64,000 nt of DNA from Eledone cirrhosa (taxonomy: Eukaryota), in assembly GCA_964016885.1 (NCBI GenBank), contig OZ024747.1, forward strand, positions 56,854,001 through 56,918,000, given 5' to 3'. The notes under the pieces are model-generated. The model did not search any database and was not told where the DNA came from. It saw only the letters and a program-made list of their open reading frames with translations. Below, in pieces: positions 1,489 to 45,242 of the stretch (positions are counted from its first letter, which is position 1; each line of letters starts with the position of its first letter). The position numbers were made by a program, and so were the translations under genes.

Positions 1489-1932
1489 GAGAAATCCAAT
1501 AACTTCTTTGAGAATGATTTTCTTTTCTTGATACAGAGGGTCGGCCCGGTGTATGGTGTTGATGCCTCCAAACTTAAAGGTTTTTTTTATGAACTTTCAT
1601 TGTTTTAAAATGTTTTGCCGTGTGAAGAACTCAGACTATCATAACTGATAGTCCTCAGTCATTTTAAATAAACCTGAACCAACTGAATATGGCCTCAAAT
1701 CTTTTATTGGTATATATATATATATATATATATATATATATATATATATATATATATTTGAATATACAAGAGAGATAAACACAAATATAAACATACATGT
1801 GTTCGAATTGTAAAGGACCAGGTTTGCTATGCTGAAAAAATACTAACTATGACAATATGGTTTGCCAGACTTAATTTAAAGTAGTAAATTAAGCAAAAGA
1901 ATAACAAACCTATATTGGGCAACTGCCTGAAA

Positions 1933-2014
1933 ACACCTAGACAGTTATAGAAACTATTTCGAAAAATTATTATTAAGTGAAGGCATCACCAACTCTCTGC
2001 TCATCAGTAGGTGT
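1933..2014 (-). ncRNA. Type I hammerhead ribozyme (canonical core, GUC cleavage triplet)
   Basis: Minus strand: ACACCUA-CUGAUGA-[G...C stem II]-GAA-AUAGUU/ucuau/AACUGU-C-UAGGUGU; 7-bp stem I, 6-bp stem III. Confidence 0.8.
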
Positions 2015-2171
2015 AAAAATTAGCGATCCTTTCACTTCTAAAAATATTAGAGGACTGAATTGTGTGCAATATGAAATAACGCATATGTCTTCGGAGCCTA
2101 GCTTGTCTCGAAAACCTATGCCGCTAAAAATAGCAGCCTGGTTAACACAACATTAAAATTAGCTCAACATC

Positions 2172-2320
2172 TATGTATGTATATACATACATATATATAT
2201 GTGCATATTTGTATTATATATATATATAAGTATATATATATACATATATACATATATATACATGCATCTATACACCGCATACATATATATGTATATATAT
2301 ATATACATACGTATGTACAC
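2172..2320. repeat. TA/CA-rich microsatellite
   Basis: Direct reading. Confidence 0.9.
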
Positions 2321-2778
2321 AGGTGTATTTATAAATTGACTACACTTAACTTCTCTGAGATTTCTGTGTGCATCCATAAGTCTGACCAGATGTTTTCAAT
2401 AGGTTGTCATAGTTACTGAGTATGATTGAAAAGCCATTACACGAATAATAATTTTGTTGTTGAGAAACCAGCTGAAAATGTTATCAATCACTTTAAACAT
2501 ATTTACTTCATGTTACCATAGTTACTTGATTCTCTTAAAGCACCAATACTTGTGTAACATATTTAAGTTGATGATTGCTTCTTTAATTCTTTACTTCATT
2601 TACTGCTGCCATGCTGTAGCATTGATTTAAATGGATTTATGCAATCATATTGACCCCACTACTAAGTTTTCAAATTTGGTCATGGATTATTGATCTTGTT
2701 TTTGTTGAGATAAGTTAGGGAGCATAAACACAGTCACAAATATTCACATGTTTGAGCATCCTGCAGAAACATGAATCC

Positions 2779-3021
2779 TAAATCCTTTAGCATTTACATT
2801 ACTCTATATTTACTATTGTATATTCATGGTGAAGGCTTTATCCTACATAGATATCCCACATAATTATCTCACATAACCTTGAGTCTACAAGATGTTGATG
2901 ATGTTATAGTTTATTTTAAGAACGATATTGTAATGTCAGTGTGAGTTGTTGGTTTTGCCCAGTTTCAAAAAGGGGAAAGAAATCTGGCCAGATACAGCCA
3001 GTTTAAATGCTAAGGGGTTAA
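2779..3021 (+). mobile_element. MITE with (TTAA)CCCTTTAGCATTTA-type termini (piggyBac-like, non-autonomous)
   Basis: Ends aatcctttagcattta...taaatgctaaggggttaa; related copies at 3268, 27290, 49215. Confidence 0.75.
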
Positions 3022-3029
3022 CGTAGTTA

Positions 3030-3225
3030 GTTCTTGCAAAGATCCAGAATGTAAAAAGACAGAGGCTTTGAATTACAGGTACAACTCCATTTTGCCAACT
3101 GAATGGACTGAAGGACACAATCCACTGAAATAAAGTGTCTTGCTGAAGGACACAATCCACTGCCAGGAATTGAACTCATGACCTTACGATCAAAGCTTAA
3201 ACACCCTAAGGCCATGAATCTTTGC
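3030..3225 (-). mobile_element. Diverged tRNA-derived SINE (family A-type head)
   Basis: gaaataaagtgtcttgctgaaggacaca...gaattgaactc is the reverse complement of the SINE-A B-box/central motif. Confidence 0.65.
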
Positions 3226-3267
3226 ACATTACTGTTTATACTACAAAGCAATGTATAATACAATTTT

Positions 3268-3489
3268 TTAATCCTTTAGCATTAAACTGGTCGTGTCCAG
3301 CCAGAATTCTCTTACTCCTTTTTGTCAAACTGGCTGTAACTGGTCATTCATACTGATGTTAAAGTATTGTTCTCAAAAATAAATAATATCAGAATCTCCT
3401 AGATTCGATATTATGTGAGATGATTATGTGAGGTAAAGCCTTTACCATGAAAATATAATAATAGAGTAATGTAAAAGGTAAAGGGTTAA
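3268..3489 (-). mobile_element. TTAA MITE, second copy, opposite orientation
   Basis: ttaatcctttagcatt...aaagggttaa; interior is the reverse complement of 2779-3021. Confidence 0.75.
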
Positions 3490-42654: not shown

Positions 42655-43010
42655 GCTACCATTGGGGAGTGGTATGAGAGGATGAGAGAGATAGAGAGAG
42701 GGTGTAGGAGGCTACCATTGGGGAGTGGTATGAGAGGATGAGAGAGATAGAGAGAGGGGAGGAGGCTACCATTGGGGAGTGGTATGAGAGGATGAGAGAG
42801 ATAGAGAGAGGGGGAGGAGGCTAGCATTGGGGAGTGGTATGAGAGGATGAGAGAGATAGAGAGAGGGGGGAGGAGGCTATCATTGGGGAGTGGTATGAGA
42901 GGGTGAGAAAGATAGAGAGAGGGGGGAGGAGGCTACCATTGGGGAGTGGTATGAGGATGAGAGAGATAGAGAGAGGGAGGAGGAGGCTACCATTAGAGAA
43001 TGGTATGAGG
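42655..43010. repeat. ~55-bp minisatellite, 6-7 copies (gctaccattggggagtggtatgagaggatgagagagatagagagagg..aggag)
   Basis: Direct reading. Confidence 0.9.
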
Positions 43011-43347
43011 GGGGGTGATAGAGATATAGAGAGAAGGATGTGGTGGTGGGTGGGGCGGTTAATGGGGAAGTGGGTGGTGTGGTGGGTGGAGTGGTTAGTG
43101 GGGGGAGTGGTTAGTGGTGAGTGGAGTGGTTAGTGGGGGTGGTGGGTGGAGTGGTGGTGAGGGTGATGGTGGTGGTGTTTAATACTGCAGTGACAGAAGG
43201 ACCGAAACACTAGGGAACCAGATTACAGTAGAAATTGAAGGATGAGAATCGAGAATGTGCTGTCGTGGGGATGAGGGAGGTGAGCAGATAACCATGGAGG
43301 TGGAGGGAGATGATGCAAATACATATTTATATATATATATATATATA

Positions 43348-43690
43348 GTTATACTTTGGGAGGGTCATGTTGCCAATAAGAAACACACGCACCAGTTACA
43401 TTCACTTCAATTTATTATGAATTAAATTTATAAATTTAAGAATTTATAAATTTCCGGTTGGCTGGTTGGTTGGTTCCACAACCGGACGGTTGTTCATATA
43501 TTGTCAAAGTTCTTTCGTCACAGATTCTCTGACCTCTTCAGTGACTGGGGATTCTTCTCTTTGTTTTGTGCCTCTCCTTTGTTCTGTCCTCCCCCATCTT
43601 ATTGGCAACATGACCCTCCCAAAGTATAACAATATCGGTTTCAACACACGTTTTCAGATAAAGAATCTTGCTAAACAAATTCAGAAACGA
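43348..43690. mobile_element. Short Penelope-like remnant: 34-bp perfect inverted repeats plus a one-sided extension, containing a hammerhead motif
   Basis: 43348-43381 is the reverse complement of 43597-43630; both flanks are (TA)n. Confidence 0.55.
43503..43545 (-). ncRNA. Minimal type I hammerhead-like motif
   Basis: GUCA-CUGAAGA-G-GUCA/gagaaucug/UGAC-GAA-AG/aa/CU-U-UGAC. Confidence 0.6.
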
Positions 43691-43936
43691 AATATATATA
43701 TATATATATATGTGTGTGTGTGTGTGTGTGTGTGTGTGTGTGTATATATGTATATATATAAATACATAAACGGAGAAAGCTAATAGCGATACTCCGGCCA
43801 AATTCCAACTCACTCAACAAACATTTAGGAAATATCTGAGTATATTCCTAATTAAACGTTCGGGGTGCTAACTATATTGTATTGTGTGGAGAATTGGCTG
43901 TATCAGTTCATATGAGATATATCAAATATATGACTT

Positions 43937-44059
43937 CCCACACGACTCGTTTCATTATAAGATTTCTACAAGTTGGGTGAAATTATACCAAATTATGTAG
44001 AAGCTTGTATAAGATCAACAGATACTTATACAAGTGGGCTCTTATAATTCTTCAGTGGG
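43937..44059 (-). ncRNA. Type I hammerhead-like fold with a branched, extended stem II (G at cleavage position, possibly inactive)
   Basis: CCCA-CUGAAGA-AUUAUAAGA...UCUUAUAAU-GAA-ACG/agu/CGU-G-UGGG; two internal hairpins in stem II. Confidence 0.6.
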
Positions 44060-44454
44060 TGCCCAATAAAATTAATATTGATAACCAAATCAACATCAAT
44101 ATTTAGCGATAATCACCATCAGTGCTTGAGGGAGCTGCTAGGTTGTTAGTCCAGCAGTTCTAAAGAAAATCTCACACTGTCTCGAAAATAGGAGGAAGGA
44201 GACTACCGCCAAAACAATACATGCGCAGGTAGTTGAATTCCGATAAAAATTCAAGCCACGTGCTCAGAACTTTCTAGATGCAAATCCCATGGTCATTAGT
44301 CACCAATGAGTGTCTTTTTACATATAAATATGTATACACACACATATTCTCTTTTACTCTTTTACCTGTTCCAGCCATTCAGCTGAGACCATGCTGGGGC
44401 ATATATATATATATATATATAATAATATATATATATATATATATAATAATAAAA

Positions 44455-44735
44455 ATAAATGGCAAACTGTCTGCCACGAAGGTATAAAAAACTTTGAGGA
44501 GTCTCGTTTAGCCCACCTCAGTGAGATAAAATCTGATGCCAGAGTCCAGTCAGGCATTCCAGCCAGCTCCGTTCGAGATCCTGTCACCTGCACCAAATGC
44601 AGATTGATGTGCAAATCAGCAGCTGGATTGAAGTGGCATTTGAGGCATAAACATAAAACAATGAACTGAAAAGACTGTTGAACCCTCATACACCGAATCG
44701 AGGGGAAAGTCCATCACACACACACACATACACAT
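44455..44735 (+). mobile_element. RTE-like LINE 3' end with a C-terminal C2H2 zinc finger and (CA)n tail
   Basis: WQTVCHEGIKNFEESR...CTKCRLMCKSAAGLKWHLRHKH*. Confidence 0.7.
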
Positions 44736-44744
44736 ATATATATA

Positions 44745-45116
44745 TATAAACGTTTGAATTTGTAAAGCCAAACAATGCAGGTATGGACATAGAATAAAAA
44801 TGCAAATGCAAAAGATATTGTTGACAATTAGTATTTTACCTTAGATTTGTTTAAATGTCCTTAATTTTCGAGATAATATCTCTTCTTCGGAGGGAAGTAA
44901 AGTGGTTAAACCAGTGTTCTAAATAGCTTGCAAGCTATTTAGAACACTGGTTTAACCACTTTACTTCCCTCCGAAGAAGAGATATTATCTCGAAAATTAA
45001 GGACATTTAAACAAATCTAAGGTAAAATACTAATTGTCAACAATATCTTTTGCATTTGCATTTTTATTCTATGTCCATACCTGCATTGTTTGGCTTTACA
45101 AATTCAAACGTTTATA
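44745..45116. repeat. Perfect 372-bp spacerless palindrome (186-bp arms)
   Basis: Centre ...aaatagcttg|caagctattt... between 44930 and 44931; no mismatch seen by eye. Confidence 0.9.
44968..45002 (+). ncRNA. Minimal hammerhead-like motif (U4C variant); mirror copy on the minus strand at 44859-44893
   Basis: CCU-CCGAAGA-A-GAGAU/auu/AUCUC-GAA-AAUU-A-AGG, with a palindromic AAUU stem III. Confidence 0.5.
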
Positions 45117-45242
45117 CCTCATTAAACAATGGTTCAAGTGAACTATAACTTCATCCTATATATATATATATATATATATATATATATATATATATATGTA
45201 TATATATGTATACATATACATATATATATATATGTATATATG

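Follow-up and report, generated by a model that had tools for sequence, protein, structure and literature searches.

Four repeat segments beside TA microsatellites

The window studied here is a 64,000-nucleotide (nt) stretch of the Eledone cirrhosa genome (assembly GCA_964016885.1, contig OZ024747.1, positions 56,854,001 to 56,918,000 of the forward strand), numbered from its first letter. The assembly is 3.0 Gb and rich in microsatellites. The window contains four segments, named A (1752-2170), B (43348-43692), C (43750-44271), and D (44745-45157), that lie at (TA)n tracts and carry motifs resembling the hammerhead ribozyme.

Segments A and C lie on the minus strand and are partial copies of non-coding tandem units. 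A covers 0.82 of a 510-nt unit and is 95% identical to it, with its 3' end to the left, in the (TA)n tract at 1711-1757. C covers 0.75 of a 698-nt unit, with 98% identity, and its 3' end lies in a TA/TG tract shared with B. Segments B and D are each composed of two inverted arms assigned to the ends of autonomous Penelope-like elements (PLEs). In B, the long arm (43348-43603, minus strand) is a 3' untranslated end without the tail, and the short arm (43597-43692, plus strand) has a tail of ~61 nt and overlaps the long arm by 7 nt. In D, an inverted arm without a tail (44745-44930, minus strand) is followed by a sense arm (44931-45157, plus strand), which is the terminal repeat of the element and has a 41-nt tail. 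This tail includes the first codons of the PLE open reading frame (ORF), with the ATG at 45129.

A first-pass annotation of the window had described four mutually unrelated, non-coding segments at (TA)n, each with a hammerhead-like core and two of them in inverted repeats. This description was borne out; a loose hammerhead descriptor matches exactly these segments, D is a perfect 186-bp palindrome, and B has unequal inverted arms. The same annotation had placed the end of C near 44110, though the segment extends from 43750 to 44271, and it had treated the segments as unit cassettes, though all four are fragments.

Hammerhead motifs in the window

The window was searched with graded descriptors, and 60 block shuffles served as the control. 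The loose descriptor gave five matches, corresponding to A, B, C, and both arms of D, which is matched twice because it is a palindrome; the shuffles averaged 0.27 matches and never exceeded 2. The excess over shuffled sequence that the first pass had expected is therefore present, and it is partly circular because this loosest descriptor was fitted to the four elements. Stricter descriptors gave one match (B) against a shuffle mean of 0.02 and two matches (A and B) against 0.05. The strictest found no intact canonical hammerhead across the window, and a relaxed version of it picks B and C. Rfam hammerhead models, also expected to respond, did not: no hammerhead was among the best 150 of 400 whole-window matches, the full lists for the four segments held mostly microsatellite and hairpin noise with no hammerhead family, and none reached the gathering score in eight better-preserved copies.

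The type I hammerhead proposed for all four segments holds for the A and C families; B has a minimal hammerhead and D a degenerate one. The window copies of A and C are damaged. In A (1933-2014, minus strand), stem I has 7 bp, stem III has 6 bp, the cleavage site is GUC, and the predicted cut falls between 1940 and 1939; the second pair of stem II is mismatched. The minimal hammerhead of B (43503-43545, minus strand) has a 4-bp stem I, an extra G before stem II, a 2-bp stem III, and a CUU site. In C (43937-44059, minus strand), stem II is branched and 95 nt long. Hammerhead cleavage triplets follow the NUH rule, and the window copy of C has GUG at the triplet (43941) where its family has GUC, so this copy is predicted not to cut. 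Contigs from three runs of one sample show the family letter at this site. In D (44968-45002, plus strand), the core reads CCGAAGA in place of CUGANGA, with an extra A, a 3-bp stem I, and a UUA site; a second degenerate hammerhead lies in the minus-strand arm (44859-44893). Core position 4 is C (CCGA) in 57 of 64 matches, a count in which overlapping loci recur, and the D hammerhead may be dead.

Copy families, insertion ends, and TA targets

The copy families are stronger evidence than the motif excess. The genome was searched with each segment; 40 of the first-look candidates were scored per family, 30 loci were fetched, and their 3' and 5' ends were counted by alignment (L008 and L020 are a single locus). 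First-look candidates, which are not copy numbers, came to 3059 for A, 2588 for B, 3246 for C, and 1676 for D.

Each of the four belongs to a high-copy repeat family whose 3' end is fixed against (TA)n and whose 5' end varies. The fixed ends lie at set distances after the predicted cut: ~188 or 265 nt in A, 158 or 220 nt in B, 189 nt in C, and 161 nt in D, with 120 nt in the inverted arms of D. TA repeats adjoin the 3' end in 27 (A), 29 (B), 28 (C), and 27 (D) of 30 loci, against a background of 14-17%. The first-pass proposal of multi-copy, ribozyme-bearing elements of Penelope or retrozyme type with TA targets is supported by the genome searches.

An inverted arm is present at the 5' end in 17/30 A, 19/30 B, 15/30 D, and 0/30 C loci. 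Where both ends fall at or near the standard sites, the tail is on one arm only in 9/10 A loci and 17/17 B loci; seven A loci and two B loci with an end elsewhere were left out of this count. In D, 13 of 15 inverted arms end at the tail-less site. C has TA at its variable 5' side as well in 24/30 loci, which shows insertion into pre-existing TA tracts. The flanks of the fetched loci repeatedly hold copies of the other families. The clustering of three elements within 1.6 kb, also pointed out in the first pass, is real and is accounted for by shared TA targets.

Autonomous Penelope-like parents of families B and D

Longer copies of B extend 5' into a GIY-YIG frame. A protein search for B gave 34,528 candidates with open frames of up to 995 amino acids (aa), and one for D gave 23,173 candidates with frames of up to 949 aa. 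The parents of both families have single ORFs of 900-995 aa that encode a reverse transcriptase (RT) and, at the C terminus, a GIY-YIG nuclease. The 905-aa ORF of D matches RVT_1 (E 4e-15) and GIY-YIG (E 2e-6). The 995-aa ORF of B matches GIY-YIG (E 1e-4) and RVT_1 (E 4e-4); the latter is below the Pfam cut-off, and a YVDD motif is present. Pfam returned no family at E 0.01 on an 868-aa copy of B, the domains being detected on another copy and on the C-terminal part, and a PDB sequence search with the B protein gave no match. The closest named relative of the B protein is from Octopus vulgaris (69% identity). The cysteine linker of B is CX4CxxC, as described for Neptune-type elements, and D has a different one. 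In D, a pseudo-long terminal repeat (LTR) flanks both sides of the ORF at locus L216. Four long copies of B were fetched; none has a direct upstream repeat, and two carry an inverted 5' copy.

From their ends and coding sequence, B and D are assigned as 5'-truncated, inverted 3' ends of two autonomous PLEs and are ordinary PLE debris. The first-pass label of short non-autonomous families therefore applies to A and C only, and the linked RT and GIY-YIG ORFs it anticipated were found for B and D and not for A or C.

Families A and C are non-coding tandem units

Walking in the 5' direction closes on itself after 510 nt in A and 698 nt in C. Copies cover 0.56-1.6 units. Three subfamilies of C are present: C1 (698 nt), C2 (700 nt, ~85% identical to C1), and C3 (998 nt, ~71% identical, with an internal duplication). 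A has a subfamily at 84-90% identity. The longest frames are 63 aa in A, 50 aa in C1, and 66 aa in C3, and GC content is 34%, 35%, and 31%, respectively. A tblastn search of the B and D proteins against the A and C units gave no match.

The C3 unit forms an array of ~43 head-to-tail 998-nt copies over 43 kb (G000:C21:35093529-35136587). The array begins after a (TA)n tract, and its units are 94-99% identical to the family unit. At least two consecutive complete hammerheads occur in A at L030 and L228 (among 54 loci) and in C at L012, L057, L191, L200, and the C21 array. On these features, A and C are classified as non-LTR retrozymes.

Remote relatives of A are present at L199:12-441, L096:2474-3101, and L162:900-1280. 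L199 and L096 keep a hammerhead with altered stems, and L096 is longer than one unit. When the flanks of L001-L204 were searched with the descriptor, 37 sequence keys were obtained, mostly from other families ending at (TA)n; flank hammerheads with long stem II regions are at L010, L023, L059, L141, and L182.

Hammerhead structure in A and C

The structure of A was checked in 36 copies chosen for a recognisable core, and that of C in 17 chosen rows from the three subfamilies. In A, 94.8% of positions pair, and both sides have changed at 3 of 23 pairs (stem I in six copies, stem III in nine, stem II in one). In C, pairing is 95.4%, and both sides have changed at 6 of 31 pairs, located in stems I, II, and III and in both hairpins branching from stem II. 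The cells with both-side changes in C exceed all 500 shuffles. The stem covariation suggested as a check is thus present as individual both-side changes, and it fails in the number of pairs affected, as discussed below.

C has further features. In 16 of 17 rows, GGGC just ahead of stem I is able to pair with GCCC at the junction of stem II, and the two strands do not covary. Free energy folding favours this GGGC/GCCC hairpin, which buries the core, and RNAalifold alone did not recover the C hammerhead fold, preferring the core-burying hairpin and two side arms. The pairing could act as an off-switch or form a pseudoknot. In C3, the first pair is U-U and the site is GUU. The branched 95-nt stem II fits no Rfam model.

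Other repeats in the window and in fetched loci

About 50 bases assigned to no family (44272-44320) separate the 5' end of C from the next TA-rich tract. LINE-like (long interspersed nuclear element) repeats, which we take to be RTE, are located at 45290-45460, 45560-45760, and 1218-1490 and terminate in (CAT)n or (GAT)n next to (TA)n. Similar flanks of LINE-like repeats hold RT frames. Two CUGAGGA words lie on the minus strand at 13119-13180, adjoining a long (TA)n, and the descriptors give no hammerhead fold there. Tandem arrays with ~4 copies each of 202-bp and 151-bp units occupy 7992-8825 and 14076-14723.

Fragments of Hydra-type and Neptune-type PLEs, labelled by motif, are present in the fetched loci. 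One Hydra-type PLE (L247, L252, and related loci) has a 3' untranslated region (UTR) of ~1.1 kb that carries the commonest flanking hammerhead family, and its 3' ends lie ~48 and 140-150 nt after the cut. A sequence link between C and a Hydra-type 3' UTR was considered and is not claimed, since the shared short motifs do not exceed those in shuffles (9 and 79 of 200).

Proposed mechanism and alternatives

We propose that B and D are truncated inverted PLE ends, that A and C are non-LTR retrozymes likely spread by Penelope-type enzymes, and that all four insert into TA microsatellites. We put the probability of this reading at roughly 85%. Following published PLE biochemistry, the GIY-YIG nuclease would nick the TA tract, and the RT would start inside the RNA at a fixed site after the hammerhead cut. 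Priming from both target strands, with one start site for each, would produce inverted arms and place the tail at just one of the two ends. The PLE enzyme would prime from both target ends for non-coding A as it would for B and D. Transcripts of A and C longer than one unit would self-cleave and circularise, and copying round the circle would produce insertions of more than one unit. An uncleaved multimer transcript would be an alternative template yielding identical DNA. The template of A and C would be one of these two, because the insertions span the cleavage site. Mobilisation by PLE-type enzymes is likely for both families and less certain for C than for A.

Several observations weigh against this proposal. 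Because loci were fetched as the closest matches to the copies in the window, the end statistics are biased toward window-like structures. C shows neither inversion nor tail in 30 loci. In a small sample of eight PLE 3' regions, 32 comparisons gave no credible match to A or C, the two nominal matches being simple repeats, and profile searches of the fetched loci gave only further relatives of A and C and no autonomous element. The number of pairs changed on both sides is not above shuffles (280 and 261 of 500), each both-side change in C is probably one event between subfamilies, and the A and C structures were drawn from the same sequences used to test covariation. From the literature, cleavage by the hammerhead is dispensable for insertion in vitro by PAc, a Poseidon PLE of Anolis (PMC11167929), and eight of nine predicted Xenopus retrozymes did not cleave (10.64898/2026.07.22.740005).

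The PAc result is also consistent with an alternative in which the hammerheads are inactive relics or protein-binding structures, and A and C spread from uncleaved multimers with no circular RNA. The CCGA core of most D matches, the U-U first pair and GUU site of C3, and the free fold of C that buries the core all fit this alternative. The core letters and three stems are nevertheless kept across the C subfamilies and in relatives of A found only by profile, and we regard this alternative as unlikely though not remote.

The absence of inversions and tails in the 30 C1 loci has another possible source. C could be moved by a non-PLE LINE or a one-strand mechanism, leaving only A on PLE machinery, and the LINE-like repeats of the window also end beside TA. 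The fixed internal 3' end of C, its more-than-unit copies, the lack of an added tail, the 5'-side TA in 24/30 loci, and a stem III of 3-4 bp, as in Hydra-clade PLE hammerheads, point instead to a PLE enzyme and make this alternative improbable.

Still less probable is a reading in which A and C, too, are autonomous PLE ends and the sampling missed their coding copies. Each search scored the best 40 of 1500-3400 candidates, and the Hydra-type PLEs of this genome have long 3' UTRs that would suit such an origin; yet copies beyond one unit re-enter their own unit, and three C subfamilies and a 43-kb array are non-coding. That B and D are MITE-like DNA transposons (miniature inverted-repeat transposable elements), as their inverted arms between TA might suggest, or that the motifs are chance, can be dismissed, since arm lengths and junctions differ among copies, the motifs are rare in shuffles, and longer copies carry RT and GIY-YIG ORFs, which rule out the MITE origin.

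Beyond the proposal of PLE debris and PLE-borne retrozymes, a broader scenario is offered tentatively and is doubtful as a whole. Old, diversified lineages of large retrozymes, with circles of 0.5-1 kb, may travel by means of TA-targeting Penelope enzymes that begin copying at a fixed internal site. In lineage C, the hammerhead would be active and of an undescribed architecture, in which the branched 95-nt stem II pairs to the strand before stem I as a pseudoknot or as an off-switch that keeps the circle intact.

Comparison with known systems

B and D resemble endonuclease-positive (EN+) PLEs (Cervera and De la Pena 2014, PMC4209133; Craig et al. 2021, PMC8557442). Published PLE traits include truncation, inversion, a tail on one side, and a bias for TA (PMC8557442). 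Shared features are a single ORF with RT and C-terminal GIY-YIG, 5' truncation with an inverted 5' copy, a tail at one end, (TA)n targets, and a hammerhead of minimal form, degenerate in D, that has G10.1-C11.1 and one additional base ahead of stem II. The B motif agrees with the minimal hammerheads of PLEs in PMC4209133, whereas D has a 3-bp stem I and, in most copies, C at core position 4. Tails of 30-40 bp are described, in contrast to ~61 nt in B.

PAc offers a biochemical parallel to the insertion ends (Frangieh et al. 2024, PMC11167929). Its protein cuts AT-rich DNA on both strands, both strands are extended, and reverse transcription begins at two positions inside the RNA, which delimit the tail. 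As in D, whose tail includes the ORF start, the PAc start sites are in the beginning of the ORF; they are 111-118 nt into it in PAc and within the first ten codons in D. These steps were shown biochemically for PAc and are read from insertion ends alone here.

A and C resemble animal non-LTR retrozymes (Cervera and de la Pena 2020, PMC7229834; PMC7761336; Li, Clavereau and Pollet 2026, 10.64898/2026.07.22.740005). In both groups the tandem units are non-coding and low in GC, every unit has a single type I hammerhead, copies range from less than a unit to a long array, and the genome is rich in PLEs. At 510-998 nt, the present units fall toward the upper limit of the published range. TA targeting, fixed internal 3' ends, tails, and inversions are undescribed in the parts of the retrozyme papers compared. 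The branched 95-nt stem II sets C apart, and cleavage and circles are predicted from DNA alone for A and C.

Hydra-clade PLEs, including the octopus element Hydra-1_Obim with its hammerhead and TA preference (PMC8557442 and its supplement), share a stem III of 3-4 bp with A and C. They differ in being autonomous and in having a short stem II, and the Hydra-type elements sampled from this genome showed no sequence shared with A or C. Pseudoknotted hammerheads (Perreault et al. 2011, PMC3088659) are a possible parallel to C, in which a conserved strand of 4-5 nt lying 5' of stem I can pair with a stem II junction strand; this pairing is nearly invariant and thus unsupported by covariation. With a stem I of 4 bp and a stem II of 6-9 bp in C, a pseudoknot in the active fold may be impossible.

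An Octopus vulgaris repeat annotation reports 31 recently active PLE families, and the words ribozyme and retrozyme are absent from the part consulted (PMC13282606). In the literature surveyed, which excluded subscription papers and Repbase, there were no octopus retrozymes and no such branched stem II; the supplement of PMC7229834 may list cephalopod elements. The four elements are largely explained by known PLE and retrozyme biology. What is new is two retrozyme lineages, one with an unusual hammerhead, and an insertion anatomy that ties A to PLE enzymes. The C hammerhead is missed by short-stem descriptors and Rfam, and such ribozymes may be undercounted. So far, the case for PLE mobilisation of animal retrozymes has been built on their co-occurrence and on the likeness of terminal repeats. 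Family A bears the PLE insertion signature itself, with two start sites, one for each end of the inverted copies, and TA targets, and thereby gives exact predicted start positions.

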